A stretch of DNA of 64,000 nucleotides from Syntrophorhabdaceae bacterium (GCA_963665295.1 OY762209.1:3232001-3296000), one strand, 5' to 3'; numbered from the stretch's first letter, positions 4,405 through 50,597 are shown. Notes: a model not told the origin generated them from the sequence alone. Numbers and translations are program-made.

Positions 4405-4679
4405 CCCCTTAAAAAACTTTTTTTCCCTTCACAAAGCCTGAGGGAAAAAAGAAGAAGGAAAGACCGGAATTCGATAGCTGCCTCCCCTGCACGCGGACAT
4501 GACGGATACCTCCGGCGTGCCGTGTGCAAAGAGGCAAACCACAAAAGGAGCGACAGAAGTACGCTGTGATGAGATGGGGCGGGTTGAGCGCAGGAGAAAA
4601 GTACCCCTTGGTCTGGAAGGACGGGGATATTTTCCACCGTAAGTGCGGATTGGTGACATACGCTCAAAGAGTGACCGCT
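4405..4679. repeat. Structured ~275-bp upstream repeat, copy 1
   Basis: 4405-4555 matches 50324-50474 at 149/151 nt by eye; the distal part diverges but keeps its pairing. Confidence 0.9.
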
Positions 4680-5056
4680 GCAAATCCTTGACACGTAACG
4701 ATAGTATACACCATGTGTGCAGATCTTGCTTCCATAGGGGTTCGCACAACGGGCAGGCTATCTGCCTGATAAGTATATATCCACCATATATTCCCGAGGA
4801 GGTATTTAATCCGGTTGCATTCGAGTACATCATACTTCCCAAAACGAATTCAAAATGGGAAATTTGCGACCCCGTTCACCTCTGCAAAATGGGAATTTTA
4901 GCCCTTTCACTCCCTCTGACGGCCCATTTCCTTCGATAACGTACAATATTCTTCCCACTTTGCTCCTTTGAGCAGAAGCAAAAAGATTGCAAAACACTCC
5001 CGTGTTGTGACACTATAAGCAAGTAAGAAAGCTGCATCATAGGAGAAGGAGAGCCC

Positions 5057-5650
5057 ATGGCCCACAAGTTTGACGCCCGCAACATGGAGAAGCTGGATGA
5101 CGCAAGGAGGGCCGAGATTCTGCCCCCTCGGGACGCGCTCCTGGAGACCGGCCTGAAGCCCGGCCAGACGTTTCTGGATGTCGGCGCCGGTACGGGAAAC
5201 TTCGCCTTTTCCGCGTGTGAGATAGTCGGAGAAAAGGGACGGGTAATCGCGGTCGATATCTCGGACAAAATGGTCGCGGAGCTTAAGAGAAGGGCATCTC
5301 TCAGGGGTTTCCGTAACATAGAAATCAGGGAATCAGGGGAATATGATTCTCCGGTCGAAGACGGAACGATAGATATGGCGCTTTTGTCCCTGGTCCTCCA
5401 CGAGATCGACGACAAGGCCCGCTTTCTTGGCATATTGGAAAAGACCCTCGCCCGCGGAGGGAGACTCTGTGTGATAGAATGGGAGAAGAAGGCCATGAAC
5501 ATGGGGCCTCCTGTGGAAGAGCGGCTCGACCCCGGGGAGATAACGGAGCTGCTCGCAAAGGTCGGTCTTACAACTGTTATGGAGAGGAAATATGGCGATC
5601 TCTTCTACTGTGTCACGGCGGTAAAGGGCAAAGATGGGGGCTTGGCGTAG
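5057..5650 (+). CDS. Class I SAM-dependent methyltransferase
   Basis: FLDVGAGTG motif I, AVDIS. Confidence 0.85.
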   Translation: MAHKFDARNMEKLDDARRAEILPPRDALLETGLKPGQTFLDVGAGTGNFAFSACEIVGEKGRVIAVDISDKMVAELKRRASLRGFRNIEIRESGEYDSPVEDGTIDMALLSLVLHEIDDKARFLGILEKTLARGGRLCVIEWEKKAMNMGPPVEERLDPGEITELLAKVGLTTVMERKYGDLFYCVTAVKGKDGGLA

Positions 5651-5698
5651 AATACCGGCGCCCGCGGAGGGCGGCATTCCGATGAGCCCCACGGCAGC

Positions 5699-5986
5699 GT
5701 GATGGAAATCAGGCTTGAGCCGGACCTTTCCCATTGCGTGGAAACCCGCGCAAAAGAGCGATACGAAAAAGTGTTGAGCGCGCTCCTTAAGGCAAGCGAG
5801 GAGGATGCCGGGCTTGCTGACGAACTGGAGCTGCTGAGGCTCTTCCTGGAATCTGCCGATTTCGGCCGGCTGAGGAACTGGTGCGATGAATTTTTCCTTG
5901 CCGGCAGACCGGTCGAGTGCATCCTGAGAAGCGCTCATGACCCCCCCGGCTATGAGATAGAGATTACACCCCAAGACGATGGGTGA
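5699..5986 (+). CDS. Hypothetical protein
   Basis: 95-aa ORF co-oriented between the methyltransferase and the radical SAM gene. Confidence 0.55.
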   Translation: MMEIRLEPDLSHCVETRAKERYEKVLSALLKASEEDAGLADELELLRLFLESADFGRLRNWCDEFFLAGRPVECILRSAHDPPGYEIEITPQDDG

Positions 5987-6098
5987 AGATTACAGGAAAT
6001 GAACAGATTGCCTGGTCCGCCGGGGTCTCGATAAAGAACACAGCTGCAGACGACGTTCGGGAACAGCCGGTGTATAATCTGAAAATGAAAGGGTTCAT

Positions 6099-7100
6099 AT
6101 GGAAATTCATGATCTGATGAAGAAATCACGAAACGGGGAGCAATTGAGCCGGGAGGACCTGATATGGTCTCTCTCTTTGCCGCCTGATTCCCCCGAAACC
6201 TACTTGCTCATGGCCGAAGCCAACCGTATATCGAAGGAACTGACAGGGAACAGGGCGGAGGTGCATGCACAGTTGGCCCTCAACCTGGCCCCGTGCTCGT
6301 GCAACTGCCTCTTCTGTTCCTTTGCGCAGAAGAACGGCGTCTTTACCGAAGAAACGCGCCTGACGCCGGAGGAGGCGGTGGCTTATGCGCTTCAGTTCGA
6401 AAGAGATGGCGCCAATGCTGTATTTGTGATGACGACGGCCCAATACCCCTTTGGGCTGTTCCTGGAGATATCTCAGGATATCCGCAGGAACCTCAAAAGC
6501 GAGACGGTTCTTATCGCCAACGTGGGTGACCAGGCCCCGGGCAATGCGAAGAAAATAAAGGAGGCGGGGTACACGGGCGTGTACCACGCGCTCAGGCTCA
6601 GGGAAGGCGTTGACTCAGGGCTGGACCCGAAGAAGAGGAAGGAGAGCATCCGCAATTTTGAAGAAGCGGGATTAAGGATAGGAACCTGTGTGGAGCCCGT
6701 CGGCCCGGAACATACCAACGAAGAATTGGCTGACCTCATTCTCTTCACGGCCTCCCTCAATCCCGCCTATAGCGGCGCAGCGCGGCGCATTCCGATTCCG
6801 GGGACCGCCATCGCAGCGAGGGGGACAATCATTGAGCTGCGCATGGCCCAGATCGCGGCGGTCACGCGGCTCGCGATGCCGGGAACGGTTCCCGGCAATT
6901 GCACTCATGAGCCCTGCACGCTGGGAGGCCTTGCCGGAGCGAACCTTTTCTGGGCGGAAGTCGGCGCTAACCCGAGAGACACAAAGGAGAAAACGGAAGA
7001 GGGCAGGGGAGAGACCGTGGGGTCATGCCGTAAGATATTCTCGGAGTGCGGCTGGGGTGTCTACGAGGGACCTTCCCGCTATTACGGCGGGCATTCATGA
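6099..7100 (+). CDS. Radical SAM protein, biotin-synthase-like fold
   Basis: CSCNCLFC (CxxxCxxC), IPIPGT. Confidence 0.85.
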   Translation: MEIHDLMKKSRNGEQLSREDLIWSLSLPPDSPETYLLMAEANRISKELTGNRAEVHAQLALNLAPCSCNCLFCSFAQKNGVFTEETRLTPEEAVAYALQFERDGANAVFVMTTAQYPFGLFLEISQDIRRNLKSETVLIANVGDQAPGNAKKIKEAGYTGVYHALRLREGVDSGLDPKKRKESIRNFEEAGLRIGTCVEPVGPEHTNEELADLILFTASLNPAYSGAARRIPIPGTAIAARGTIIELRMAQIAAVTRLAMPGTVPGNCTHEPCTLGGLAGANLFWAEVGANPRDTKEKTEEGRGETVGSCRKIFSECGWGVYEGPSRYYGGHS

Positions 7101-7136
7101 CGGGATATCGGGCACGAACAGAAAGTCACCAGTTTG

Positions 7137-7601
7137 TCATTCACTGCCTTCCGGTTTGGGTCTTTCCTCCTTGCCTTCGAACCACCCTTCCGTTGCATCG
7201 GGGAAGCAATCAAAGCGGGTGACATATGGTTTGATATCGATGATGGGCGTTAAGTCCAGGGTGTCTATCCCACTCACGTGCAGGATGGCCTTTTCCCGTC
7301 CCAGCAGGCGAACGATCGTGAGACCTACACCGTTTGGCCTGCCGGGATGGCGCGACGCGAATATTCCATGAGGAGTATCGTCGAGAAGGGTCGGACGGAC
7401 AAGTTGAATAGGCCCTGGCCGATCAAAAATGTAGATGAGAATGATATGTGAAAACCCTTCGATATCCTTCAGACCTTCTTCGTATTCAGGGAATACTTCG
7501 ATCCACCCCACCCCTTCCGGCCGAAACGCGCCCTGGATAGGGGCTTCCGCCTTTTTGGCGTATGGGGAATGGATGAGACCTATAGGTTTTATTTCAATCA
7601 T
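7137..7601 (-). CDS. tsaA: TrmO/TsaA family tRNA m6t6A37 methyltransferase
   Basis: IKPIGLIHSPY, GLKDIEGFSH, GIFASRHP.RPN, TPIIDIKPY; start ATG 7601. Confidence 0.85.
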   Translation of the reverse strand: MIEIKPIGLIHSPYAKKAEAPIQGAFRPEGVGWIEVFPEYEEGLKDIEGFSHIILIYIFDRPGPIQLVRPTLLDDTPHGIFASRHPGRPNGVGLTIVRLLGREKAILHVSGIDTLDLTPIIDIKPYVTRFDCFPDATEGWFEGKEERPKPEGSE

Positions 7602-7843
7602 TCTTAAGTTCTGTCTCTGATCGGTCAGGAGCCCGGGAACTTTTCGTAGCGGTAGTTCCGATGCTGCCTGCCCCCGACTACATTGAATATCATCCGCCAT
7701 ACCGCGAAGTCAAGCTCTGCTTTCACTCGACTTTCCTTAAACCCTGATCTCTACCCCGCTTCCCTCCGGAAAGGAAAGGATAACAAAATACCTCCTTTGG
7801 ATGATCTGCTCAACTGCGAATTTCATTTTTTGTTTTTTTCTGC

Positions 7844-7900
7844 TTGACAATTGATAGAAGTGAATATATATTCATAAGAGTGAAGTGAATATATATTCAC
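7844..7900 (+). promoter_or_regulatory. Sigma70-type -35 element with two tandem palindromic operators
   Basis: TTGACA at 7844; TGAATATATATTCA at 7861-7874 and 7886-7899. Confidence 0.65.
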
Positions 7901-7944
7901 TATAGAGTCCCGCAGGAAGAAAGAAGGAGATTGGTGAGCGCATA

Positions 7945-8706
7945 ATGACGAGGCCTAACAATCCCAGAAGAGTAGGGTTTCTCGCACAAGTGATATATTT
8001 CAAGCCCGCCGGCGTCAAGATGACGGATTTGGAAGAAATAGTGCTAGGAAATGATGAACTTGAAGCTGTGCGTTTAAAGGACCTACTTGGCATGCCCCAG
8101 GAGGAGGCTGCCAAGGAGATGGGCATCTCTCAGCCCACGTTCCATCGCCTCATTCTCATGGCAAGGCAGAAAATCGCGGATGCCTTCGTAAATGGAAAGG
8201 CAATCCGGATAGACGGCGGCAATATCCATGTGGATGACGACTTCTCTCAGCCCTGTCATTGGAGAAAGCGATGGGGGTGCAAAGCAAAAGCAGGGTCCGA
8301 CGATGAGGTAGATGATACCCCTACAAGAACAAAAGGAGGCAAGATTATGAATATAGCGATTACAAGCACGGATGGAACCCTCGACGGAATGGTGGACGAA
8401 CGCTTCGGGCGAAGCAAGAAAATAGTCCTTTTCAACAACGGAAAACAGTCCTTCGAGGTCGTTGACAATATGGTGAACATGAATGCAGCTCAGGGTGCGG
8501 GTATCCAGACTGCGCAGAATGTGGCGAAAACAGAGGCTCAGGTCGTAATCAGCGGCCATCTCGGGCCAAATGCCTTCCGCGTCTTACAAGCGGCAGGCAT
8601 AGAGGCCTACACGGCGTCGAACATGACGGTGAAGGAAGCCCTGGCGAAACTTGGGGAAGGGACGCTTGCGAAACTCTCCGGCGCCGACGTAGAGGGGCAC
8701 TGGTAA
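7945..8706 (+). CDS. DUF134 HTH domain fused to a NifB/NifX-like (ORP-type) domain
   Basis: YFKPAG..ELEAVRL.D..GM.QEEAA..MGISQPTF, then IAITS..RFGRS..GAGIQTAQ..GHLGPNAF. Confidence 0.85.
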   Translation: MTRPNNPRRVGFLAQVIYFKPAGVKMTDLEEIVLGNDELEAVRLKDLLGMPQEEAAKEMGISQPTFHRLILMARQKIADAFVNGKAIRIDGGNIHVDDDFSQPCHWRKRWGCKAKAGSDDEVDDTPTRTKGGKIMNIAITSTDGTLDGMVDERFGRSKKIVLFNNGKQSFEVVDNMVNMNAAQGAGIQTAQNVAKTEAQVVISGHLGPNAFRVLQAAGIEAYTASNMTVKEALAKLGEGTLAKLSGADVEGHW

Positions 8707-8723
8707 AAAAGGAGGTATTAATC

Positions 8724-8999
8724 ATGCCAAGAGGTGACGGAACGGGACCAACAGGGGTCGGACCTAAAGTGGCTCGAAATGAAGGAGAGAACAAAGGGGC
8801 AAAGCAGAAAGGCCTCCGAGGTACAGGGGCAGGCCCATGTGCAGGTGCGGGAAACAGAGGGAGAATGGCGGGCAGGAGCTGCGGTCAGCCGGGAGAGTGC
8901 GTATGCCCTCAATGTGGAACAAAAGCGCCTCATGAGCAGGGCATTCCTTGCCTGCAGATGAAATGTCCTCAATGCGGTACGTCCATGGTACGGGCGTAA
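8724..8999 (+). CDS. Small Gly-rich (DUF5320-like) protein with Cys-rich zinc ribbon
   Basis: MPRGDGTGP.G; CVCPQCG...PC...CPQCG. Confidence 0.75.
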   Translation: MPRGDGTGPTGVGPKVARNEGENKGAKQKGLRGTGAGPCAGAGNRGRMAGRSCGQPGECVCPQCGTKAPHEQGIPCLQMKCPQCGTSMVRA

Positions 9000-9014
9000 G
9001 ATGAAGGCGAGTTT

Positions 9015-9893
9015 ATGAAAATAGCGTTTACAAGCGGCAAAGGAGGGACAGGAAAAACGACGGTCGCAGTTAATCTAGCCTATTTCCTTGCCAATTCAGG
9101 TCAACAGGTCCAGTATCTCGACTGCGACGTGGAGGAACCCAACGGCCATATCTTCCTGAAGCCGGAGATCCGTATAAAACGGTCCGCAAAAGTCATGGTG
9201 CCCGTGATTGACCAGGATAAATGTACCTCATGTGGAGACTGCAGCGCCAAGTGCCAGTTTAACGCAATGGTGACGCTCCCGGGAAACACGCTCATTTTTC
9301 CTGAACTTTGTCATAGCTGCGGTCTTTGTGTAAGAATCTGTCCCCAGGGCGCCCTTAGCGAAGGCGAGCGGGAGATCGGGCATATAGAGGAAGGAAAATC
9401 CTTTACCACTATAGATTTCGTCAGCGGAGTGCTTCACGTAGGTGAACCGATGGCGGGGCCGCTTATTCAGCAGGTCAAAAAGGAGTGCGGGCAGGGTTGC
9501 ACCCAGATTATTGACGCGCCGCCGGGAACCTCGTGTCCCGTCGTGAAAACCATCTCAGACGCGGACTACGTGGTGATGGTCACGGAGCCCACGCCCTTCG
9601 GCCTCCACGACCTGAGAATAGCCGTGTCCGTGGCGCGAAACCTGTCCAAGCCGGTCGGCGTCGTGATTAACAGGGCCAACGGCAAGTTCTCCCCTCTCGA
9701 CGACTACTTGTCGGAAGAAGGCCTGCCTGTACTGATGATCCTGCCTGAAGACCGCGAGATTTCAGTCAGCTACTCGACGGGCAACCTCATTCTTCAGACC
9801 CTGCCTGCCTATATGAAACAATTCATGGAATTGATCGTCAATATCGGGAGAATATCGGGTAGCGCGCGAAGGGGGCAGGGGACATGGAACTGA
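9015..9893 (+). CDS. MinD-like P-loop ATPase with 2x[4Fe-4S] insertion (ORP-complex type)
   Basis: SGKGGTGKTT, DCDVEEPN, two CxxCxxCxxxC-like motifs, DAPPGTSCP. Confidence 0.9.
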   Translation: MKIAFTSGKGGTGKTTVAVNLAYFLANSGQQVQYLDCDVEEPNGHIFLKPEIRIKRSAKVMVPVIDQDKCTSCGDCSAKCQFNAMVTLPGNTLIFPELCHSCGLCVRICPQGALSEGEREIGHIEEGKSFTTIDFVSGVLHVGEPMAGPLIQQVKKECGQGCTQIIDAPPGTSCPVVKTISDADYVVMVTEPTPFGLHDLRIAVSVARNLSKPVGVVINRANGKFSPLDDYLSEEGLPVLMILPEDREISVSYSTGNLILQTLPAYMKQFMELIVNIGRISGSARRGQGTWN

Positions 9894-10768
9894 TAAAGGA
9901 AGTGGTTGTGGTGAGTGGAAAGGGCGGGACGGGCAAAACCTCTCTTTCGGGCGCCCTCGCGACCTTGTTCCAAAACAGGGTAATAGCGGATTGCGACGTG
10001 GATGCGGCAAATCTTCATCTCATTCTCAATCCCGAAGAGGCTTCTCGAAGTATGGTGTTTATGGGAGGAAAGAAGGCAAAGATCAACCCGGAGTCCTGCG
10101 TACGGTGTGGGACATGCAAAGAGGTATGCCGTTCCATGGCTATATCCGAGAATTTTATGGTAGACCCGTTCCTGTGCGAGGGCTGCGGAGCATGCTATTT
10201 TCTCTGCCCGGCAGAGGCAGTCAGTTTCTCCTCCCATCTGGCGGGGCATTGCTATGCAAGCCGTATTGCAGATGACGGTCGGTTTGTCCATGCTGAAATC
10301 TTTCCGGGAGAGGAGAACTCAGGGAAACTCGTTGCCATGGTGAGAGATGAGGCACGCAAAGAGGCGGAAGAGGCCGGTCACAGGCTTATCCTTATCGACG
10401 GCCCACCCGGCATAGGGTGCCAGGTGATTTCTTCTCTCACCGGGACCAATCTGGCCGTGGTGGTGACGGAGCCGACGCCCTCGGGCATCCACGACCTGAA
10501 ACGGGTGGTCGAATTAATCAAACACTTCCGGATCAAGGCCGCGCTGGTAGTGAATAAGGGTGATATTAACCCTCAATACACCGGGGAAATGAGGTCGTAC
10601 TGCGATGCGCAAGACCTTCTTTATCTCGGTGAAATCCCCTACGAACCGAAGATTACGGCGGCGCAAAAACAGGCGATGACAATTCTCGAATTTGACCCCC
10701 ACTGCGAGGCAAGTGAGGCAATACGAGCTATCTACACAAAACTACAATCAGCTTTGGAGGAATTATGA
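9884..10768 (+). CDS. Second MinD-like P-loop ATPase with ferredoxin domain
   Basis: SGKGGTGKTS, DCDVDAANL, CVRCGTC, CEGCGAC, DGPPGIGC. Confidence 0.9.
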   Translation: MELIKEVVVVSGKGGTGKTSLSGALATLFQNRVIADCDVDAANLHLILNPEEASRSMVFMGGKKAKINPESCVRCGTCKEVCRSMAISENFMVDPFLCEGCGACYFLCPAEAVSFSSHLAGHCYASRIADDGRFVHAEIFPGEENSGKLVAMVRDEARKEAEEAGHRLILIDGPPGIGCQVISSLTGTNLAVVVTEPTPSGIHDLKRVVELIKHFRIKAALVVNKGDINPQYTGEMRSYCDAQDLLYLGEIPYEPKITAAQKQAMTILEFDPHCEASEAIRAIYTKLQSALEEL

Positions 10769-12024
10769 ACTGCAACGAAACAACTGATGATGCAATAAGC
10801 GACGAGGCTCTCAAGGCAAGACTTGACCGGATCGGTCATGTCTTTATCGTTCTTTCCGGCAAGGGAGGTGTAGGAAAGAGCACGGTGGCGGTAAATCTGG
10901 CCATGAGCCTCTCTTTAAGGGGATTGAGGACGGGAATACTTGACGTTGATATCCACGGCCCGAGCATACCGAAACTGCTCGGACTTTCGGGTCAAAGGAT
11001 CGGAGTTAAGAATGAAGAGATTGTCCCCTTGGAGGCGTATGGCAATCTTAAAGCGGTTTCCATGGGATTCTTCCTCGACGGAAATGAGCTTCCGGTCATA
11101 TGGAGAGGGCCGATGAAAGCGAAAATGATACGTGAATTTGTTGAGCACGTTGCGTGGGGAGACCTTGACTGTCTCGTGGTGGATTGTCCTCCGGGAACGG
11201 GCGATGAGCCTCTTTCGGTCGCACAGATCTTTGGCGCGAAAAGCAGCGGGATCATCGTCACCACCCCCCAGCAGATCGCCACTATCGATGTGGAGAAGTG
11301 CATTACCTTCTGCGGGCAACTGGGCATCCCGGTTGCGGGAATCGTGGAAAATATGAGCGGATTCGTCTGCCCTGAGTGCGGCAAAGAGGTGGATATCTTT
11401 TCTTCCGGAGGGGGGCAAAAGCTGGCGGACAAATTTGACCTTCCCTTCCTCGGAAAAATCCCTCTCGATCCGGACATCGTGAAGAGCGGCGACGAGGAAC
11501 AACCCTACATCTACTTTTACTCAAAGACCAAAACAGCGGAGAGGTTTGGTGAGATCATCGAGCAGATAGTCTCTTTCGGAAAAGAAGTAGAGGCTGATAG
11601 CCAGGAAGGCGCGTGCTGTTCCGGTCCGTCCTCTTGTCAACAGGATGAGAAAAATGCACCACAGATTATGAATAACAAGGAGGATACCATGAGATTTGCA
11701 GTCCCGACAAATGAAGGAAAGTTGTGCGCTCACTTTGGCCACTGTGAAAAATTTGCCCTTATCGATACCGATGCAAACGGCGCCATAGTGAATGAGAGCT
11801 ATATCACCCCGCCTCCCCACGAACCCGGACTTCTGCCTCCATGGCTTTCCGAGCAGGGCGTCAACTGCATTATAGCCGGTGGAATGGGCAGCCGCGCACA
11901 GCAGCTTTTTGCTCAGCAGAGCGTGAAGGTGGTTACCGGTGCGCAGGGCGAAATCCCGAGAGAGATCGTCGAGAATTACCTCAAGGGGGCACTCCTCACC
12001 GGAACGAACACCTGCGACCATTAG
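10765..12024 (+). CDS. mrp: Mrp/ApbC Fe-S carrier ATPase fused to a NifX-like domain (MrpORP type)
   Basis: SGKGGVGKST, VIWRGP, DCPPGTGDE, ENMSGFVCPECG; C-terminal HFGHC..PPHEPG..GGMG..NTCDH. Confidence 0.9.
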   Translation: MNCNETTDDAISDEALKARLDRIGHVFIVLSGKGGVGKSTVAVNLAMSLSLRGLRTGILDVDIHGPSIPKLLGLSGQRIGVKNEEIVPLEAYGNLKAVSMGFFLDGNELPVIWRGPMKAKMIREFVEHVAWGDLDCLVVDCPPGTGDEPLSVAQIFGAKSSGIIVTTPQQIATIDVEKCITFCGQLGIPVAGIVENMSGFVCPECGKEVDIFSSGGGQKLADKFDLPFLGKIPLDPDIVKSGDEEQPYIYFYSKTKTAERFGEIIEQIVSFGKEVEADSQEGACCSGPSSCQQDEKNAPQIMNNKEDTMRFAVPTNEGKLCAHFGHCEKFALIDTDANGAIVNESYITPPPHEPGLLPPWLSEQGVNCIIAGGMGSRAQQLFAQQSVKVVTGAQGEIPREIVENYLKGALLTGTNTCDH

Positions 12025-12079
12025 GCAGCGGTATGTGCGGAAGGAGTCGGTGAGGAAGACCAAAACATAGGGGGCAGCG

Positions 12080-13793: not shown

Positions 13794-13869
13794 CCGGATT
13801 GGAGACCCCGACTGCCCTAACCGGGACAGGGCATGGAACGCAAATATATTGAATGAGGAGTTTTTGGTT

Positions 13870-14661: not shown

Positions 14662-14671
14662 GGGCAGGGAG

Positions 14672-33375: not shown

Positions 33376-34737
33376 ATGAGCGGCATGAAGGATAGGGACA
33401 TCATCCTCGATTCGATCAACGAGGGCGTTTTTACCGTCGATGAAGAGTGGCGGATTACCTCTTTTAACGCAGCGGCCGAGATCATTACGGGAATACCTCG
33501 TGGTGAGGCGATAGGCCGACGGTGCATGGATGTCTTTCATGCCAACATTTGCGAGAATGCCTGTGCTTTGCGACGCACCATGTCAGACGGGGAACCCGTG
33601 GCGAATGCCCTGGCCCATATAATAAATAACGGTGGTCGCCGTGTGCCCGTCCGGATATCTACTGCTTTGTTGAAAGATGACGAAGACCGCGTGATCGGCG
33701 GAGTCGAAACCTTTCACGATCTGAGCCAGGTGGAGGAACTGAAGAAGGAACTCCGGGGGCGCCACAGCTTTCAGGACATTATCGGTCGGAGCCAACCCAT
33801 GGCACGCCTTTTCGATCTGGTGCCGAGGATAGCCGAAAGCGTCAGCACCGTTCTGATCGAGGGGGCAAGCGGGACGGGAAAGGAGCTTTTTGCACGGGCA
33901 GTCCACAATCTCTCGAATAGAAAACAGACGCGGTTCGTGGCGGTTAACTGCGGCGCCCTGCCGGACACGCTTCTTGAGAGCGAGTTGTTCGGATATAAAG
34001 CGGGGGCGTTTACCGATGCCCGCCGGGACAAGGCCGGCCGCTTTGCCCTAGCGGAGGGGGGGACCATTTTTCTCGACGAGATCGGTGATATTTCGTCTGC
34101 GATGCAGGTGCGCCTGCTGCGGGTCCTTCAGGAAAGGGTGATAGAGCCTCTCGGGGGGGTGGAGCCGGTTAAGGTGAATGTCAGGATAGTGGCGGCGACC
34201 AACAGAAACCTGGCCGATCTCGTGAAGGCCGGTTTGTTCCGTGAAGACCTGTACTACCGCATCCGGGTGATCCACCTCGTGCTGCCGAGCCTGAGAGAGA
34301 GGCGCGAAGATATTCCCCTCCTCGTGGATTATCTCGTGACAAAGCTCAACCACCTCCAGGGGAAGGATGTCGCAGGGGTTTCCGCCGAGGTAATGGCAAG
34401 GCTGATGGAACACGATTTTCCGGGCAACGTGCGGGAACTGGAAAACATCATCGAACAGGCTTTCGTGTTGTGCCGCGGCGGGTTGATCGAAATGAACCAT
34501 TTACCCCCGGAACTTCGGCCTCCAGGAGTGCTTGGCCCTGATGACCACATGTCGATGACCATTGCCTCGATGGAGAGGCAGCTCATAGCGTCCACCCTCG
34601 GTCGCAATCATGGTAACCGCAGGAAAACGGCTACCGATCTTGGCATCAATACGAGCACACTTTTTCGCAAGATCAGGTCATACGGCCTGGATGCCCCGCC
34701 TTTTGACGGCCGCAGGAGAGGGGATGCGAGCCGGTAG
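33376..34737 (+). CDS. PAS-AAA+-Fis sigma54-dependent activator, OrpR-like
   Basis: GASGTGKE, ESELFG..GAFTDA, FREDLYYR; PAS domain with C-x8-C-x3-C (CMDVFHANICENAC). Confidence 0.9.
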   Translation: MSGMKDRDIILDSINEGVFTVDEEWRITSFNAAAEIITGIPRGEAIGRRCMDVFHANICENACALRRTMSDGEPVANALAHIINNGGRRVPVRISTALLKDDEDRVIGGVETFHDLSQVEELKKELRGRHSFQDIIGRSQPMARLFDLVPRIAESVSTVLIEGASGTGKELFARAVHNLSNRKQTRFVAVNCGALPDTLLESELFGYKAGAFTDARRDKAGRFALAEGGTIFLDEIGDISSAMQVRLLRVLQERVIEPLGGVEPVKVNVRIVAATNRNLADLVKAGLFREDLYYRIRVIHLVLPSLRERREDIPLLVDYLVTKLNHLQGKDVAGVSAEVMARLMEHDFPGNVRELENIIEQAFVLCRGGLIEMNHLPPELRPPGVLGPDDHMSMTIASMERQLIASTLGRNHGNRRKTATDLGINTSTLFRKIRSYGLDAPPFDGRRRGDASR

Positions 34738-40413: not shown

Positions 40414-40512
40414 AGAGCCTCCCCTAAGCCGGCCAACATGAGGTCGAGCATGCTCTCTGACCGCTACCCAGAGATCGCGTTCGTCACGGGGACCTGCCTT
40501 CCTACGGTAACT

Positions 40513-41296: not shown

Positions 41297-41334
41297 TTTC
41301 GCCTCCTTTGTGAGTCTTTTCGGCCATTGAAGCC

Positions 41335-42011: not shown

Positions 42012-42017
42012 GTGTAT

Positions 42018-42047
42018 ATTATAGACATATGTTCATAATCATGTCAA
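42018..42047 (-). promoter_or_regulatory. Sigma70 promoter with overlapping palindromic operator; leaderless transcript likely
   Basis: Minus strand TTGACA-N18-TATAAT-N6-ATG; the imperfect palindrome TTATGAACATATGTCTATAA overlaps it. Confidence 0.7.
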
Positions 42048-42120
42048 CGCCCGAAGAATCATTTTCACCGTTGTGCCCATCAATTCCAGGTGAGGTCGTA
42101 GACGAGGGGAGGACTTCACG

Positions 42121-42981: not shown

Positions 42982-44077
42982 CGTTCTCTCCTTTGAAAAA
43001 GAAGTGCATATCAAAAGCCACGAGAAATACAAAGACTGCGACAATGGTGGCCAGAACCGCGACGAACCGACCCCTGAACAGACCCCGGTACATGAAAAGA
43101 AGTTTTATGTCGAGCATGGGGCCAAGGAGCATGAAAGCCATCTGAGCCGCGAAGGGCCAGACGTACCTCATTGAGGCGGCGACAAAGGCATCGGCTTCCG
43201 AGCACAGGTTCAAGCCGACGGCCATAGCCATGGCAGATACAATGGATAGAACAGGTGAGCCGGTAAGACCGGCAAGCAGTCCCCGTGGAAGCACGGTGTG
43301 AATCAAAGCTGCCGCAAAAGCACCCATCACCAGGAATCTGCCGGCGTCGAGAAAGTCGTCGGCCCCGTGGGCAAGTGCGTCCCATACCGGCGACTTCTGC
43401 GCCTTTGGGTCTGTTCCATGAACCGATCCATGAGGGCCGTGGTCTGATCCGCACCCGCACGAGGCGGCTCCCTCTTCCTCCAAAGTGTTTTCGCGAAGCA
43501 TAATCTTCGCAAATTTTTCCTGGAACAACCATTGTAAGAGAAGACTTATGGAAACGCCCAAACCGTATCCGCAGGCGACACGGATGAGCGCCGTGGACCA
43601 TTGAAAGGAATAAGCGGTTCCGGTGGACAAAAACACTATCGGGTTCGCAATCGGGCCAGAGAGGAGGTAGGCAAGGGCCGCGGCAGGAGATACCCCCTTG
43701 CCGATCAGACGCCTGACGACAGGAACTACCGCACATTCACAGATGGGAAAAACAAGTCCGAGGCCTGCCGCGCAAAACACACCCCTTTTCCCCACGGGGA
43801 TAAGCTTCGTCATCCGTTCCCGTGAAACAAAGACCTCCACCAGACCACCCGCAAGGCTGCCGAGCAACATGAAGGGGAGTGCCTCCAACACGATCGCCGA
43901 GAAGGTTACGGACAGCGTCCTGAAAAGGGAGTCTTTCCTCCAAAGAAGGAGCGCAGCGAGAGCGCAAACCACGAAAACTCCCTCTGCCGCTGTTCCGGCT
44001 CCCGGCCATGTGGCACGCCGCGAACCGGAACAGCACACGGAGTCCTCCGTCCTATGGTGATGGCGGTCGCCGCTCAT
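42974..44077 (-). CDS. DUF318/ArsP-type permease
   Basis: LEALPF, FPICECAVVP, LCSEADAFVA, GPMLDIK. Confidence 0.85.
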   Translation of the reverse strand: MSGDRHHHRTEDSVCCSGSRRATWPGAGTAAEGVFVVCALAALLLWRKDSLFRTLSVTFSAIVLEALPFMLLGSLAGGLVEVFVSRERMTKLIPVGKRGVFCAAGLGLVFPICECAVVPVVRRLIGKGVSPAAALAYLLSGPIANPIVFLSTGTAYSFQWSTALIRVACGYGLGVSISLLLQWLFQEKFAKIMLRENTLEEEGAASCGCGSDHGPHGSVHGTDPKAQKSPVWDALAHGADDFLDAGRFLVMGAFAAALIHTVLPRGLLAGLTGSPVLSIVSAMAMAVGLNLCSEADAFVAASMRYVWPFAAQMAFMLLGPMLDIKLLFMYRGLFRGRFVAVLATIVAVFVFLVAFDMHFFFKGENGG

Positions 44078-44093
44078 CGGGCCACCAGTCTTG

Positions 44094-45092
44094 CTATTCC
44101 CCCTTGCATTTCAGCCCTGCTCTCAGACTCGTGAGATTCTGCTCCATGAGATGTATGAATGTTACGCCCTGGTTCATCTCGTCTTTGGTGATGTTATGGG
44201 CGCCATGGAGCTTAAGTAGTTTCGACTTCGTATCCTTTGCTAACACGTCTGCTGTCCGGGGTTCAATCAGCTCTTCGTAGAAAACCGTGTCTACACCGTG
44301 CATCTTGAGCTTTTTCCTCAGTTCCATTAATCGTTTGGCGGTCGGCTCCGCATCAGGCGAGCCGGAATAGGCCGACTCATAAACGAGTCCATATCGGCTG
44401 GCAAGGTAGTTGAATGCAAAATGACCCCCATGAATTATGATTCTTTTCTCGCACGTTGCGAGAGTTTCCCGGTATGTCCGGTCAAGATACGCCAGCCTTG
44501 CTTTATATTCGGACGCATTCTTCAAGTAAATGTCTTTATGAGCGGGGTCTTTTGCTGCAAAACCGACGGCAATCGTGTCCACCATGTTCTGAGCGTTGGC
44601 GAAGTCAAGCCAGATGTGAGGGTCAAGGTTGCCGTGATGATGATGGGATTGCTCTCCTTCGTGGTGACCCTCGGCGTGGCCACGCGCCTCCTTCTCATGG
44701 TGGTCTTCCTTTATTTTCATGAGCGTGATACCCTCACTCGCGTCAACCACCCGGAGCCGTTCCGATCTTACTCCGGTGAGAAACCTTTGAACCCATGGTT
44801 CCATGGCATCTCCGGTGTAGACAAACAGGTCGGCCTCCTTCACCTTCATCACATCGCCCGGCTTGGGTTCAAAACTATGCACTTCAATGCCGGGCGGGAT
44901 AAGCATCGACACCCGTGCCTTGTCCCCTCCCACATTCTTCGCAAAATCAAAGAGCGGGAACAGAGTCGTAATGACCGTTATCTTCCCTGTAGAGGGCTGT
45001 TCGGCTCTCCTTTCACAACCACCGGCCATAATCACAAGGCCGAGAGCAATCACAATAATCGAGAATTGTTTTATTCTTTTTATGCCCAACAC
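44094..45092 (-). CDS. znuA: Zn/Mn ABC transporter substrate-binding lipoprotein
   Basis: Lipobox MAGGC, EVHSFEP, His-rich loop, DPHIWL, H.AFNY. Confidence 0.85.
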   Translation of the reverse strand: MLGIKRIKQFSIIVIALGLVIMAGGCERRAEQPSTGKITVITTLFPLFDFAKNVGGDKARVSMLIPPGIEVHSFEPKPGDVMKVKEADLFVYTGDAMEPWVQRFLTGVRSERLRVVDASEGITLMKIKEDHHEKEARGHAEGHHEGEQSHHHHGNLDPHIWLDFANAQNMVDTIAVGFAAKDPAHKDIYLKNASEYKARLAYLDRTYRETLATCEKRIIIHGGHFAFNYLASRYGLVYESAYSGSPDAEPTAKRLMELRKKLKMHGVDTVFYEELIEPRTADVLAKDTKSKLLKLHGAHNITKDEMNQGVTFIHLMEQNLTSLRAGLKCKGE

Positions 45093-45262
45093 AAAGCCCT
45101 CCTCATTTGTAAGTGAGATAAAAACTTAAGCAGTGGACAGGAGCCATTGGTCTGTTTTAGAGGTCGTCCTTATCCAAGCAAACCGCAAGGCCCCTCTCGA
45201 CGACCGTAACGTTGCTTTTAGAAGTGTTCCTGCCTGAAAGAAATCAAAAAAGGATTAACCGA

Positions 45263-45541
45263 TCAGATGATGCGATGCGGCGGAGCGCGACTACAGGGTT
45301 TAGCCCGGAAACCGAAGGAATCCGGCAAATATGATGGGGAGACGGGTTTTTCAGGGAAAAGAGGGAGGGCGAAGGCGACTGCATGCTCGCCCAGACCCGG
45401 AACTACAGAGTGGCTAAGAAAAAAGCAGAGTGCGCAGTCAGTATGAGCGGAGTCGCCATCATTATGATGATGAAGACAACCTACCCCAAGGGCAAATAGG
45501 AATAGCACAATAATTGCAACTATTCCAAACCGCTTACACAT
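45263..45541 (-). CDS. DUF2946/CutF-like leader protein (His-rich, CxxC, RAPP)
   Basis: Hydrophobic N-terminus, HHH..H.DCALC, terminal SRAPPHRII. Confidence 0.7.
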   Translation of the reverse strand: MCKRFGIVAIIVLFLFALGVGCLHHHNDGDSAHTDCALCFFLSHSVVPGLGEHAVAFALPLFPEKPVSPSYLPDSFGFRAKPCSRAPPHRII

Positions 45542-45826
45542 ACTGCCTTAACCTCCGACTCGCAAGAAAACTGACAATCAAGACGAGTTAACAATCATCT
45601 ATCATGAGGCATAGAGAGAAGTCAACCCCGGTGGCTTGATATTTCCCGCTCTTAAGGGCACCCTGAGATCGTGGCATATGGGAGTTGCAGCCGGACGAGA
45701 ATAATAATAGGCATCCTCGGGGGGGGGCGGATGACCTTTCCTTGTCGGCTGGAAAGAAGGAATGGGCCTGCTTTACAAGGCTTTCCCGTAGCGATATTAT
45801 CAAGAAAAACATAAGGGGTGTTTATT

Positions 45827-46378
45827 ATGAAAGAGGAGATGGATCGGAGAGAGTTTTTAAAAACGACTGCCGCTGCGGGAGCGGTCTTAATGGCGGGAGG
45901 TATTATGGGCGGAACGAAGAGCGCGTGGGGATTGGTGAAAATCCCAGAGGTAGACAGGGTAGCCATTACGATCATCACGGATAACTATTATGACGCGCTG
46001 AGACCTGACGTAGCGGTGACAAAAAGGTTCCGCACTCAGCCCGGCAAATGGATGCATGCGGAACATGGCCTGTCCTACTTCGTTGAAACGGCATCGAAGG
46101 GCAAAACGAGCGCTTTCATGTTCGACTATGGCCTCGATGCTCTGGGGGTCAACAGGAATATGGAAGTCCTTGGCATCGATGTGGGAAAGGCGGATGCCTT
46201 CGGCTTAAGCCATGGCCACTTCGACCACTGGGGCGCGCTCGTTGAGACCCTTACCATGAACAAGTCTAAGATATGGAAGGGAGCGCCCCTGTACCTGGGT
46301 GAAGAGGCTTTCGAGAGAAGATGCTCCCTCGTGCCGGGCACCACGAACAGGCTGGATATCGGCCAACTGTCGAAGTAG
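45827..46378 (+). pseudogene. Truncated Tat-exported MBL-fold hydrolase (paralog of 12080-13033)
   Basis: DRREFLK, VKIPEVD..ITDNYYD.LRP, SHGHFDHW; stops at DIGQLSK, before the C-terminal metal ligands. Confidence 0.75.
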
Positions 46379-46502
46379 GCCGGCCTGACATGAAAGCATT
46401 CTCCCCGAGCAAGAGGGCGGTGAAAAAGTGAAAGGACCGACCCGATCGGGGTTGGGCCGGCCCTGAAGCGTGATGCCTGGTTCCGGGAAAACTTGTCTCC
46501 CT

Positions 46503-46946
46503 TTAGATATATGTGCCCATGATGTACTTGTTGAGGTAGTCGATTTCTATCCTCTGTTCCCGGACAATCGCCTTGACTACATCGCCTATCGAGACGAGTC
46601 CGACCAACTTTCCTTTGTCAAGAACCGGAAGGTGTCTGATGCGTTTCTCGGTCATAAGGGAAATACATTCGTCAACCGTGGTAGAGGATGATACAACGTA
46701 GAGGTCTTTGGTCATGATGTCCCTCGTAAAGGTCTCTTTTGAAGATTTTCCTTCGAGTATAACTTTCCGCGCATAGTCACGCTCCGATATTATCCCCGCT
46801 ACATTGCCTCCTTCGTCAAGCACGACCGTTGCTCCTACGCCCTTTTCCTGCATCAACTGGAGTGCCCTGTAAACCAGGGTATCGGTTGAGATGGTCCATA
46901 CCTCGCTTCCCTTGCGTTCCAGAATCTGACTTACTGTGGTCTTCAT
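46503..46946 (-). CDS. CBS-domain protein
   Basis: GIISERDYARK, RIRHLPV, GLVSIGDVVK. Confidence 0.9.
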   Translation of the reverse strand: MKTTVSQILERKGSEVWTISTDTLVYRALQLMQEKGVGATVVLDEGGNVAGIISERDYARKVILEGKSSKETFTRDIMTKDLYVVSSSTTVDECISLMTEKRIRHLPVLDKGKLVGLVSIGDVVKAIVREQRIEIDYLNKYIMGTYI

Positions 46947-47418
46947 AACTACCCCCTTATAGATTTATTGGCTCCGGGCAACCCCCGGATTCACTCGTAT
47001 AAGACTTGACTGGTACGCCAATCCCTCCTTTACCTGCAGGGACAGAACGGCACAAAGCCTCCCCCTCTCACGTGGCTGCTGACCCCTGTTGTATACTGGT
47101 TTCCTGTTTTAGTACTACGGCAACAAATAAGAAGTCAAGAGTTAAAATATCAATAGATATACTATCAAAACATATAATTTGGGAAAAGATTATTTTGCAT
47201 ATCTTCCTCGGTTTCTATAATCAAGACCTACGGAGAAAACCATGGATAAAAACAGGATTTGGAAATAGAAATTTCTCCCATGTTGCCGGTTGTTCAATAA
47301 AAATAACATTGTTACGATGAGGATCAGATCAAATACTATCGGGTCCCTATTTCTGCCCACAAGGCTGGCGCCCCGGGGCGCCAGCCTTGTGGATTCTTAC
47401 CGCCCTTTACCACATGGG

Positions 47419-47853
47419 TCAGTTGCTGCCGCCAAAGCCCTGACCACCCCATCCTCGACCACCGCACCCGACCATCCGTGCACCATAACCGCGCCCCCCT
47501 GTGCCAGGGCCGAAACCTGCGGCAGGCAGCCCCTGCTTCTCGGCTGCGGTCTGTATTCTTGCCCTAATGTCGATCATCTCTTTCTGAAGAGTGGCTATAC
47601 GATCCTGATTGGGTTTCTCTTTCGTGTACTCGTTTCTGAGTTCGAGCCGTTTTGCCATCATCTCGTCCCTGAACGGAAGTGTCTCCTTCTGAAAGGCCCT
47701 GAATGCGTTAATGTCTACCTGTTTGCCCGCCGTTGGCCCGTACGCGTACCCGGGACAATAGGCGCATCCCATACCCCACCCTGCATGGACCGAGGTGCCG
47801 AGGAGAGCCAATCCGACGGCTGCCACTAAAGCCACTACCCACATCTTTTTCAT
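47419..47853 (-). CDS. Periplasmic Spy/CpxP/ZraP-like protein
   Basis: Signal peptide, F.KET.P.R..M..KR.EL..E, P...I..LQKE; Gly-rich tail; SD AAGGAGG. Confidence 0.75.
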   Translation of the reverse strand: MKKMWVVALVAAVGLALLGTSVHAGWGMGCAYCPGYAYGPTAGKQVDINAFRAFQKETLPFRDEMMAKRLELRNEYTKEKPNQDRIATLQKEMIDIRARIQTAAEKQGLPAAGFGPGTGGRGYGARMVGCGGRGWGGQGFGGSN

Positions 47854-48297
47854 TGCCTTTTTCCTCCTTCTTGGATTTCTTATGATAACAGTATAGGAAA
47901 ACAATGTGAATGGACGGCGAAGAGATTGTGAAATATTGTGAAGGCCGCATCCGCGATGGGGAATTGGTCCTGGTCCGGTAGTAAGAAGCGGTTTGTCCTT
48001 AAACAGGATATCGGAGATCATCTTCTGATGCACATTGCAACAAATCTATAAGCATGGGATGCTGCCCCATTACGATGAATATATATTGGTAGAAGGACTG
48101 AGTGGTGATTGCTGCAATGGAAATACTGGGAAGACATAGATGCCTTCAGGTAGGAGTACATTGAGGTTCACAGGCCTGCCAGTTCCTAACCGTATGTTTC
48201 TGCGCGCTCGCCCCCGGTGGTCCCTCTGGCCTGAAAGGATGGGTGTTTTCCACCGTCAGCGGAATGGTTACATAGAACTTTCCTATCGTCGGTGTTC

Positions 48298-49113
48298 CTA
48301 TCTCATGAACCAGTTTGAACATCGCTGTGAAGCATATCGTGAAGGCAACAGACACACATAGGGTTTGGCTGATACAGGGCTTTCGAGGACAACCACAGGG
48401 GTTTTGTAGACACCCTCGATAGTCGCCCGCGTCAACACCTCGCCGGGAGCGCCGTCTTTGACTATGGTTCCGTCCTTCAGGAGAAGGAGTCTGTCGCGGT
48501 ATTGCCCCGCGAGGTTGAGGTCGTGGAGGATGGTGATTATGGTTAGACCTTGTTCGCTATTCATTTTCCCAATCAAATCCAAGACCCTGACCTGATGGGT
48601 GATATCCAGATGACTGGTCGGCTCATCAAGGAGAAGAAGGCGTGGTTCCTGGGCCAAGGCGCGACTGATAAAGACCATTTGCTTTTCACCGCTACTTAGC
48701 TTATCCACGCGCCTTTCCCTGAGCCCTGCGGTGCCGGTAAGGGCCATGGCATTATGAGCATGCTCAACGTCCCGCGTGCTCTCCCCTAATCCCATCCCTG
48801 CCCGGTGAGGTATTCTTCCCAGCAGCACGAACTCTTCAACCGACATGGGGAGATCGGTATCCCGGATGTTGCCCACCACCGCAACTTTCCGGGCAAATTC
48901 TCCAATACCTAAACCCTTGATGTCCCGGCTTTCGAGAAGGATTGCCCCCTTGGCAGGCTTTATTACCCGAGAGATCGCCCTGAGAAGCGTTGTCTTTCCG
49001 GAACCGTTGGGTCCTATGACTGCGACAAATTCTCCTGCCCCTACGCTTATGGTCACATCTCGGAGTACCGGGTCCTTTCCATACCCACACGTAAGATTGC
49101 GTATATCGAGCAT
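48298..49113 (-). CDS. Cobalamin/Fe-siderophore ABC transporter ATPase
   Basis: GPNGSGKTT, LSSGEKQ, LLLDEPTSHLD, LHDLNLA. Confidence 0.85.
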   Translation of the reverse strand: MLDIRNLTCGYGKDPVLRDVTISVGAGEFVAVIGPNGSGKTTLLRAISRVIKPAKGAILLESRDIKGLGIGEFARKVAVVGNIRDTDLPMSVEEFVLLGRIPHRAGMGLGESTRDVEHAHNAMALTGTAGLRERRVDKLSSGEKQMVFISRALAQEPRLLLLDEPTSHLDITHQVRVLDLIGKMNSEQGLTIITILHDLNLAGQYRDRLLLLKDGTIVKDGAPGEVLTRATIEGVYKTPVVVLESPVSAKPYVCLLPSRYASQRCSNWFMR

Positions 49114-49645
49114 CACCGCCCTCCAAGAGACAGTTCTCTTTTCGTGAGTGCATATATGAAAAGAATCCCACCAAGAATCCCCGTTATTACGCCCACCGGC
49201 AATTCCATGGGCAGGGCCACAGTCTTGGCCACCGTGTCGCAGAGGATCAGAAAGATCGCTCCTGACAGGAAGGAACCGATCAGGACGATCCTGTGATCCA
49301 CACCCACCCACATGCGGACAAAATGGGGCACGACGAGCCCCACAAACCCTATAGCCCCCGAGACGGAGACCGCGACCCCGGTCAGCGGGGACGCGATGAT
49401 GAGGATCGTCCGCTTCGTCCTTTCCGCGTCGATGCCGAGATGGTGCGCCTCCTCTTCACCCAAGGCCATGGCATTAAGATTGAAGCAAAAGAAATAGGAG
49501 GCCACCAACCCCGCGAGGGCGGCGCATAGAGCAAGTTTCACGAGAATCCAGTCTGTTTCACCGAGAGAACCTATGATCCAGAAAAGGATGTCATGGAGGT
49601 CTTCAGCCCGGGAGATGGACATAATAAGAATGACAAAGCTTACTA
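49113..49645 (-). pseudogene. FecCD/BtuC permease, C-terminal fragment
   Basis: FWIIGSL, LGEEEA..LG, GAIGFVGLVVPH, ELPVGVIT; the N-terminus is absent here. Confidence 0.8.
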
Positions 49646-49686
49646 TAAGGGAGAGAACCGAAAAGCATTCTCCCCCTGATCGGCTC

Positions 49687-50085
49687 TTACCATGCGTCTG
49701 ACTGCTGATATTCGGGCAATTCCGATATGTACTCCGCCATGAGACAATTGATGAGCCTCTCCAGCCTCTCAGCGCACCCGTTCACGTCCTGGTCGTCAAT
49801 GTTGTAGCTGATAGACCGGAGCGCCTTTATAAGATCGATAGGGTTATAGGGATGCGCTCCGTTGAAAGAGAGGATTCGGACGGGTTCGTTCTCTTCGTAA
49901 CGCTCGTTGTAGGCGTGTATGTTTGCGATTCTCAAGGCCTGGACAAATGGCTTGAAGTGAGTATCAAGGCCTTCCGCCCACCCTTCCGGGTAGTCCCATA
50001 CGTGCGCCAGGGTGCCGGGGTCCATACGGCAAAGACTGTTGCGCACGCGGACAAACTTTTCATCCTCGAAACAGATGGTGCTCAT
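49687..50085 (-). CDS. Hypothetical protein, mobile-element-like
   Basis: 132 aa, N..AYNERY, LIKAL.SI.YN, LPEY...AW; translationally coupled to the 69-aa ORF. Confidence 0.7.
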   Translation of the reverse strand: MSTICFEDEKFVRVRNSLCRMDPGTLAHVWDYPEGWAEGLDTHFKPFVQALRIANIHAYNERYEENEPVRILSFNGAHPYNPIDLIKALRSISYNIDDQDVNGCAERLERLINCLMAEYISELPEYQQSDAW

Positions 50086-50291
50086 AACACCTCCTTTACC
50101 CCGAGGGTCTTTGCTTCTTCTTCAAGCTTCAGGTAGTATTCGTATTCTTCCCTTGCGCCCGGGTCGTCCTTTGCACATCCCATGTTGTCATAGTCCAGGG
50201 CATCGATACTGATGTTGCGGGAATCGGAATGAATCGACTGAACAACTCCTCCCGAGACTTCCACGATTATGCGGATGGGTCTCTCACTCAT
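50082..50291 (-). CDS. Small acidic hypothetical protein
   Basis: IIVEVSGGVVQ..D.D; SD AAGGAGG directly downstream of repeat copy 2. Confidence 0.7.
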   Translation of the reverse strand: MSERPIRIIVEVSGGVVQSIHSDSRNISIDALDYDNMGCAKDDPGAREEYEYYLKLEEEAKTLGVKEVL

Positions 50292-50323
50292 AAGGTCCTC
50301 CTTCTTGTGGTTTAGGGGTATTC

Positions 50324-50597
50324 CCCCTTAAAAAACTTTTTTTCCCTTCACAAAGCCTGAGGGAAAAAAGAAGAAGGAAAGACCGGAATTCCATAGCTGC
50401 CTCCCCTGCACGCGGACATGACTGATACCTCCGGCGTGCCGTGTGCAAAGAGGCAAACCACAAAAGGAGCGACACTGTATTGGAAAAAATAATAGGGCGG
50501 GTATGAGCGCAGGTGAAACTTGCGCCTGTTCTGCAAGAGCGGGGGCATCTTTCACCGTAAGCGCGGATTGCCGACATACGCTCAAAGAGTGGCCGCT
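50324..50597. repeat. Structured ~275-bp upstream repeat, copy 2
   Basis: Direct repeat of 4405-4679. Confidence 0.9.

Follow-up and report, generated by a model that had tools for sequence, protein, structure and literature searches.

The 64,000 nucleotides (nt) of DNA analysed here, referred to below as the window (Syntrophorhabdaceae bacterium, GCA_963665295.1, OY762209.1:3232001-3296000), carry two copies, A and B, of a structured repeat that we call the cassette. Copy A stands upstream of radC and ardC and copy B upstream of two genes for proteins of 69 and 132 amino acids (aa), all on the minus strand. Our analysis indicates that a long hairpin of the cassette is kept on the template strand of the downstream gene and that both copies lie within an integrative conjugative element (ICE). 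The parts of the two copies, in window coordinates, are as follows.

4388 to 4556, minus strand: core module of copy A, a covariance-model match over 163 model positions, upstream of radC-ardC
4480 to 4535, plus strand: hairpin 2 of copy A, long and imperfect, folding better on the plus strand, which is the radC template strand
4417 to 4451, no strand assigned: hairpin 5 of copy A, a stem of ~10 base pairs (bp) in which a T-run and C's pair with G's and an A-run, with a conserved 12-nt loop
4411 to 4416, minus strand (read on the gene's sense strand): T-run of copy A, directly after hairpin 5
4394 to 4408, no strand assigned: mini-hairpin of copy A, 4-5 G-C pairs and a 5-nt A/T loop, just before the Shine-Dalgarno sequence
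4557 to 4679, minus strand: accessory distal hairpin domain of copy A, common only to copies A, B and E and one copy in the relative G053
50307 to 50475, minus strand: core module of copy B, upstream of the 69-aa and 132-aa genes
50399 to 50454, plus strand: hairpin 2 of copy B, a template-strand fold
50476 to 50597, minus strand: accessory distal domain of copy B, containing a sigma-70-like box pair

An earlier note on this DNA had described direct repeats at 4405-4679 and 50324-50597, and our alignment agrees with it: the gene-proximal ~150 nt of the two copies differ at 2 positions, the distal part is ~70-80% alike, and each copy stops 33-35 nt short of a minus-strand ATG (radC at 4370, the 69-aa open reading frame (ORF) at 50291). 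All three hairpins that it had named are recovered by folding, and 4 sequences show the compensatory arm change that it had reported within the distal GAGCG/CGCTC domain. Its extent has to be redrawn, since the repeat is real but the conserved unit is a core of ~165 nt next to the gene (4388-4556 and 50307-50475), the distal ~120 nt being an accessory present in 4 of ~54 members. Read on the gene's sense strand, the core consists of a short conserved block, hairpin 2, a conserved 8-nt block, a pyrimidine-rich linker, hairpin 5, the T-run, a 4-5-bp G/C mini-hairpin and the Shine-Dalgarno sequence; the ~95-nt leader beyond hairpin 2, with its two further hairpins, is thus itself conserved. Both strands of the repeat region fold better than shuffled sequences (z -2.9 to -4.3). 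Hairpin 2 of copy A contains G-T wobbles and an invariant A/G mismatch, while in hairpin 5 three pairs covary on both sides across the family. A perfect hairpin of ~23 nt, ~40-60 nt upstream of the core, is common to copy E of this genome and a copy in the relative G015 (L036, L022), and in copy E it is placed between accessory domain and core.

The family was delimited with BLAST and with a covariance model, R1, built from an alignment (A2) of the six full copies of this 5.5-Mb genome, which have E values of 1e-37 to 1e-41 and are accompanied by one fragment. Of 150 other genomes searched with R1, 14 have a match at E <=0.01. Seven of these are among the 68 genomes from the same family and 6 among the 22 from a second family of that order, and the last is a weak match elsewhere in the phylum; the 3 genomes of the same genus gave none. 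By name, the records with matches are assemblies of Syntrophorhabdus, Syntrophorhabdaceae, Syntrophorhabdales or 'delta proteobacterium'. Metagenome contigs, scanned by pattern, yielded ~30 further members. In a search of sequencing runs, 5 turned up as carrying the element, none of them registered as RNA. The same kind of scan on genome contigs gave 38 loci, of which the covariance model kept 20 at E <1e-4, all but two of them already known, the remainder being low-complexity chance matches in unrelated phyla. A further search across the order reached only genomes that were covered before and brought no additional copies. The 69 model matches reduce to 60 distinct sequences once 9 exact duplicates are taken out, and 54 of these were kept, leaving aside the chance matches L133, L112 and L145 and the partial L040, L028 and L118; two more, with less than 45 nt of hairpin 2, were dropped to give the set of 52 modules. 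The subgroup of this genome is group 1 (aligned without L026, L032, L042 and L095), and the divergent subgroups, groups 2 and 3, were analysed separately; a single MAFFT alignment mixing all subgroups gave an RNAalifold structure on neither strand. In a model-fitted alignment, A3, which is biased towards the model's structure, 87.8% of cells pair (79.0% in shuffles), both-sided changes occur at 18 pairs (12.9 in shuffles, a value of 18 being reached by 2 of 500), and the covariation score is 0.217, compared with 0.103 in shuffles (reached by 0 of 500) and 0.045-0.072 for slid partners. The copies of this genome are 80-100% alike in their gene-proximal part, and the flanks upstream of the core are unrelated in most copies.

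On which strand does hairpin 2 fold? The G-T wobbles that the earlier note had placed on the plus strand, the template strand of the downstream genes, are real. Across the 52 modules hairpin 2 is more stable on the antisense (template) strand in 42 with RNA parameters and in 49 with DNA parameters, whereas hairpin 5 has no such bias, the sense strand being better in 34 modules and the antisense strand in 18. When sequences are clustered at 85% identity, 12 of the 17 clusters favour the antisense strand (Wilcoxon p = 0.013), although these clusters are still mutually related. Energies of whole modules with RNA parameters barely differ between strands (-54.4 vs -55.8; antisense lower in 34 of 54), and the bias is therefore specific to hairpin 2. 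For the six copies of this genome the values are -43.05 antisense and -34.19 sense. For the antisense strand of group 2 (15 distinct sequences), RNAalifold recovers a hairpin of 20 pairs (-21.84 kcal/mol), and for the sense strand no long hairpin, only an unrelated local one (-11.66 kcal/mol). These 20 pairs, whose structure was itself defined from the antisense strand, are standard there in 96.3% of cells as against 79.2% on the sense strand, where each sequence has 3-4 A/C mismatches in hairpin 2; G-T cells number 52 on the antisense strand, at eight pair positions, and 1 on the sense strand, and seven of the eight positions alternate with Watson-Crick pairs. Group 3 (4 sequences) has 13 wobble cells antisense and 0 sense. 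Of the 4 accessory domains, 3 likewise have the more stable fold on the antisense strand. The long hairpin is thus kept on the template strand of the downstream gene, and for the divergent subgroup a reading of the main hairpin as a sense-strand non-coding RNA is excluded; the gene-proximal half may still act as such an RNA.

The cassette also keeps a fixed place with respect to genes. In 53 of 57 modules a start codon preceded by a Shine-Dalgarno sequence, with an ORF of at least 25 aa, lies 6-20 nt beyond the model end. Sorted by what follows, the 52 modules comprise 14 before a helix-turn-helix (HTH) gene of xis type, 13 before a radC-type start (some being merely truncated radC remnants), 5 before the 69-aa family, 5 before DUF6876, 3 before DUF932, 1 before ardC, 8 before other genes and 3 before none. 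Pfam matches on representatives bear out HTH_17, RadC, DUF6876, DUF932 and ArdC. Remnants of the radC N-terminus, ~30-95 codons long, stand between the cassette and other genes in nine group-2 modules (L140, L134, L029, L041, L031, L147, L032, L077 and L095), in L140 and L134 fused in frame to the xis-type HTH; because radC remnants precede other genes, the cassette has apparently spread together with the first radC codons. A conserved divergent gene served by the cassette was ruled out, the five upstream candidate ORFs being unlike one another (15-23% identity). The genes served by the two window copies, with their neighbour, are these.

3957 to 4370, minus strand: radC, RadC-like JAB domain, 137 aa, the first gene after copy A
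3112 to 3960, minus strand: ardC, ArdC N-terminal domain and zincin peptidase, 282 aa, after radC
2233 to 2872, minus strand: ribbon-helix-helix (RHH) antitoxin and PIN toxin pair, after ardC
50082 to 50291, minus strand: the 69-aa gene, without a Pfam family, with homologues after 4 other modules
49687 to 50085, minus strand: the 132-aa gene, without a Pfam family, conserved in the second ICE (ICE1) too

Directly after the 132-aa gene comes a truncated FecCD permease ORF (49113-49622), which matches no more of the 311-position profile than 154-311; this suggests insertion of the copy-B operon into an ABC transporter operon, or recombination beside one.

Both window copies lie within one element, ICE2, of 90.4 kb, which occupies the window from 1514 to 64000 and continues beyond it (genome 3233514-3323922). 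Its left boundary is the following.

1514 to 1555, no strand assigned: left end of ICE2, where 42 nt from the 3' part of tRNA-Arg recur in direct orientation, the partner being at genome 3323881-3323922

From the left, ICE2 runs through the attachment (att) repeat, an HTH gene, the PIN-RHH pair, ardC, radC, copy A, 46 kb of cargo, the 132-aa and 69-aa genes, copy B, efflux and TonB genes, the TrwB coupling protein, the TrwC relaxase, a VirB-type type IV secretion system (T4SS), copy C, xis and the integrase (genome 3322657-3323865), which adjoins the tRNA-Arg gene. A second element, ICE1, of 63.5 kb, is located at the tmRNA gene between 30-nt direct repeats and has the same core in mirror order, with copies D (before a xis remnant and integrase), E (before a 66-aa gene) and F (before a DUF932 gene). 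Integrase, relaxase, coupling-protein and T4SS genes are present together with flanking att repeats at a tRNA or tmRNA gene, the Pfam matches being Phage_integrase, TrwC, TrwB_AAD_bind, families of VirB3/4/6/8/9/10 type and TrbC, and both elements are ICEs with a MOBF relaxase and a VirB-type T4SS. The mobile setting, with anti-defence and establishment genes downstream, that the earlier note had supposed is borne out by this annotation.

The cargo of ICE2 consists of metal, molybdenum-cofactor and Fe-S genes and resembles housekeeping functions (subunits of a molybdoenzyme of xanthine-dehydrogenase type, MoaA/MoaC, Fe-S ATPases of NUBPL type, DUF134 and ZnuA); it also includes a sigma-54 activator gene at window 33376-34737. 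Two cobalamin riboswitches, at 58009-58198 (95.4 bits) and 59260-59463 (74.4 bits), precede TonB and TonB-dependent receptor genes. Neither ICE contains the fragment of the cassette mentioned above (genome 861620-861717, L007/L015): comprising the 5' block and some of hairpin 2, it is flanked by an IS200-like Y1 transposase gene on one side and a type I restriction-modification operon on the other. A non-coding gap of ~590 nt separates the TrwC gene from a 117-aa gene that precedes the coupling-protein gene; the gap (genome 3304094-3304687, with its counterpart at 776475-777488) is partly conserved between the two ICEs, and by analogy with R388 we take it to be the likeliest place of a candidate origin of transfer (oriT).

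Relative to the TrwC relaxase gene, all six non-xis modules in ICE1, ICE2 and contig C23 of the relative G015 are co-oriented, an orientation that, according to PMC11541004, makes a gene transcribable from the transferred strand if the relaxase gene enters last. Given that hairpin 2 is conserved on the template strand and that the cassette is fixed in front of establishment genes, we tentatively propose that the cassette is a promoter formed only while the template strand is single-stranded, the state in which it enters a new cell. The folded hairpin 2 would be the binding site of RNA polymerase, which would start near the hairpin's base, and transcription would then read through the ~95-nt linker, hairpin 5, the mini-hairpin and the Shine-Dalgarno sequence into the gene. 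Once the DNA is double-stranded, hairpin 2 would remain unformed, while hairpin 5 and the T-run would stop read-through from upstream. Expression of the downstream genes would thus come as a burst following transfer and cease afterwards.

Several observations weigh against this proposal. First, the modules before xis and integrase genes face away from the relaxase gene in 3 of 3 cases (copies C and D and the one on contig C23), and since they do so, one transferred strand cannot template both sets; the scheme leaves these copies unexplained, and xis-type modules have the same strand bias (antisense better in 12 of 14). Moreover, in the relative G079 two modules 3.4 kb apart converge (G079:C63:7641-7808, plus strand, and 11098-11265, minus strand); a truncated radC gene follows each of this pair. 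Second, the strand evidence is uneven. Single-pair wobbles in group 1 are roughly balanced between strands and the strong asymmetry comes from groups 2 and 3, the group-2 hairpin having been derived on the very strand it favours; covariation in group 2 is mostly one-sided (both-sided change at 1 of 20 pairs), and its observed values are reached by 22-29 of 500 shuffles. Third, no sigma-70-like -35/-10 pair, the defining feature of Frpo, is present in the core on either strand in any of the six copies of this genome. The only such pair near these copies runs from 50517 to 50489 on the minus (sense) strand, in the accessory domain of copy B, with 9 of 12 matches, a 17-nt spacer and a -10 box retained in the G053 homologue, and there the core could be an ordinary 5' leader for the 69-aa genes.

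How could the opposite-facing xis-integrase copies be expressed? One may speculate that they are read from the strand retained in the donor, or from hairpins extruded from double-stranded DNA. The promoters of the phage N4 virion RNA polymerase are such template-strand DNA hairpins, extrudable from supercoiled double-stranded DNA with SSB, the protein that binds single-stranded DNA, and extrusion of this type would let copies in either orientation work. The N4 hairpins have 5-7 pairs and need the phage's single-subunit polymerase; among the annotated genes of the two ICEs no gene for a phage-type single-subunit polymerase was seen. Exposure of the xis-integrase template strand as a lagging-strand template was ruled out: with the origin near 1.08 Mb and the terminus near 3.9 Mb, as located by GC skew, the arrangement is the reverse of the one required.

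Which sigma factor might read a single-stranded hairpin of this kind? On the 3' arm of the template-strand hairpin the alignments, read by eye, have GG and GC doublets ten bases apart in fixed columns, kept in 15 of 15 group-2, 25 of 25 group-1 and 0 of 4 group-3 distinct sequences. Only in group 2 do the flanks match the sigma-54 consensus well (again by eye); in the subgroup of this genome they match weakly, and the doublets by themselves are not uncommon by chance. The invariant A/G mismatch falls at the second G of the GG doublet, and because of this mismatch and the G-T wobbles the GG doublet is absent when double-stranded DNA is read towards the gene. Directly after the GC (-12) doublet comes an internal loop, at the place where, according to PMC5095919, sigma-54 makes its fork junction. 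The genome contains rpoN. From these sequence features it is conceivable, if quite unlikely, that hairpin 2 is a sigma-54 promoter existing only in folded single-stranded DNA: with -24 GG and -12 GC running from loop to base, transcription would head towards the gene, and the internal loop would supply a preformed fork junction, so that the usual ATPase activator might be dispensable. If so, this would be the first single-stranded DNA promoter for an enhancer-dependent sigma factor.

The alternative that survives best, though we consider it unlikely, is an ordinary structured 5' leader of messenger RNA (mRNA) transcribed from varied upstream promoters, in which attenuation would fall to hairpin 5 and the U-run, and access to the ribosome-binding site to the mini-hairpin, both under the control of a factor of the ICE. 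Hairpin 5 has ~10 pairs, of which 3-4 are G-C, followed by one base and 4-8 T in aligned members; with its 12-nt loop it falls outside the range of our terminator scan, which has a loop limit of 8, and together with the T-run it looks like an intrinsic terminator in the sense direction and in that direction only. This feature speaks for a leader, as do the fixed place 6-20 nt before the start codon, the lack of a strand preference in hairpin 5 with its both-sided covariation at 3 pairs, and the two wobble pairs at the base of hairpin 2 that favour the sense strand. A leader would work in either orientation of the ICE, so that the xis-integrase copies pose no problem, and copy B has its sigma-70-like promoter just upstream of the core. 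Furthermore, the radC and STAXI motifs, with similar gene sets, are filed as candidate RNAs in PMC2864571. On the other hand, hairpin 2 pairs poorly in the sense RNA of the divergent subgroups, at the 79.2% of cells given above; no conserved promoter was found upstream of the core, where most flanks are unrelated; and because the unit has been copied whole to places before unrelated genes, it seems to carry a start signal with it.

Another kind of single-stranded DNA signal, to which the position before genes would be secondary, is very unlikely in our judgement. Hairpin 2 could then serve complementary-strand synthesis, as a priming site or as a single-strand origin such as the one that ICEBs1 has, or it could be acted on by a relaxase or recombinase which spreads the cassette too. 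The fold on the template strand, the several copies per element and the movement of the cassette in front of unrelated genes, at times with radC 5' remnants, are all compatible with this, and Frpo itself primes DNA synthesis too, as stated in PMC12672017 and PMC11541004. However, the invariable spacing to ribosome-binding site and start in the 53 of 57 modules points to gene expression, both orientations occur within one element, and no transposase or recombinase gene travelling with the cassette was found in the gene annotation of the window and both ICEs.

A cis-antisense RNA, with hairpin 2 as its stable body, that silences all cassette-bearing mRNA leaders once the element is established, as FinP does, is the most doubtful of the alternatives: it would explain the antisense-strand fold of hairpin 2, including the four-base loop of G-N-R-A type seen by eye on that strand in many group-2 hairpins, one RNA could act on all copies given their gene-proximal likeness of 80-100%, the orientation of the ICE would be irrelevant and the radC 5' remnants of group 2 could house its promoter, but on the antisense strand none of the six copies of this genome has a sigma-70-like promoter within or next to the core, hairpin 2 lacks a following T-run there, and in group 1 the sequence after the start varies with the gene family and leaves nowhere for a conserved antisense promoter.

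Returning to the proposal of a single-stranded DNA promoter, its interest lies in the fact that such promoters have so far come from a few enterobacterial plasmids, where they were found through similarity to Frpo or through sigma-70 boxes in hairpins, and where they allow anti-defence genes to be expressed while the incoming DNA has yet to become double-stranded. Here an unrelated, compact cassette has, by its position and gene set, the same job in the ICEs of a syntrophic anaerobe, and the evidence is of a new kind, an evolutionary asymmetry of wobble pairs that singles out the template strand. If the proposal is true, early expression from single-stranded DNA extends to chromosomal ICEs of a distant phylum, and comparing wobbles between strands becomes a comparative-genomic test for such promoters that can be used without knowing the sigma factor. 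The orientation of the xis-integrase copies then raises the question whether hairpin promoters fire from the retained donor strand or from extruded hairpins.

The cassette, which the earlier note had not recognised as a described family, is in no Rfam family: there was no match at any of the thresholds used, and cmscan left radC (RF01754) and STAXI (RF01728) unmatched in the window at the gathering score, in 4300-4800 at E <=10 and in six member loci at E <=1. Literature searches, none of them aimed at the element or its host by name, turned up no paper on it. With radC and STAXI (PMC2864571) it shares the character of a structured element near radC, integrase, antirestriction and DNA-handling genes; the STAXI authors (Weinberg et al. 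2010) themselves raised a function in single-stranded DNA. STAXI differs in consisting of tandem pseudoknots, and the taxa of the radC and STAXI motifs are Proteobacteria and Enterobacteriales.

In its way of working the cassette most resembles the Frpo/ssi single-strand promoters, which were reportedly described by Masai and Arai in 1997. The earlier note had likened it to Frpo and to CUP, and this comparison is supported by the template-strand hairpin, the conjugative setting and the co-orientation of 6 of 6 non-xis modules, while against it stand the missing sigma-70 pair, the lack of plasmid similarity, the weaker fold and the opposite xis-integrase copies. As to the plasmids, copy A (303 nt) has no blastn match (word size 11) at E <=1e-3 among the 72,556 plasmids of PLSDB. 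As to the fold, which also counts against a promoter of this type, the 329-nt region reaches -57.2 kcal/mol when computed for DNA and thus falls short of the -75 kcal/mol that PMC12672017 gives as the threshold for pESBL hairpins and enterobacterial single-stranded DNA promoters. A precedent for the proposal is that the same paper describes several unrelated classes of such promoters upstream of ardA, klcA and methylase genes.

According to PMC11541004 and PMC12672017, the elements of F, of ColIb-P9 and of pESBL classes 1-3 are, like the cassette, folded and non-coding and lie upstream of leading-region or anti-defence genes (ard, ssb), with several copies per element, a fold on the template strand, mismatches in the stem and downstream genes without an evident double-strand promoter. 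The cassette differs from them in its smaller hairpin (~25 pairs), in which no sigma-70 -35/-10 pair is rebuilt in the stem, in its conserved ~95-nt leader with two more hairpins, in its hosts, which are ICEs of Syntrophorhabdales rather than enterobacterial plasmids, and in its occurrence before xis-integrase genes in the opposite orientation. Thus the cassette fits a mode of working most like that of Frpo/ssi, yet it fails the tests of sequence similarity, sigma-70 boxes and hairpin size, and, judged from its sequence, this combination fits a new class of folded single-stranded DNA promoter that would stand beside Frpo/ssi.

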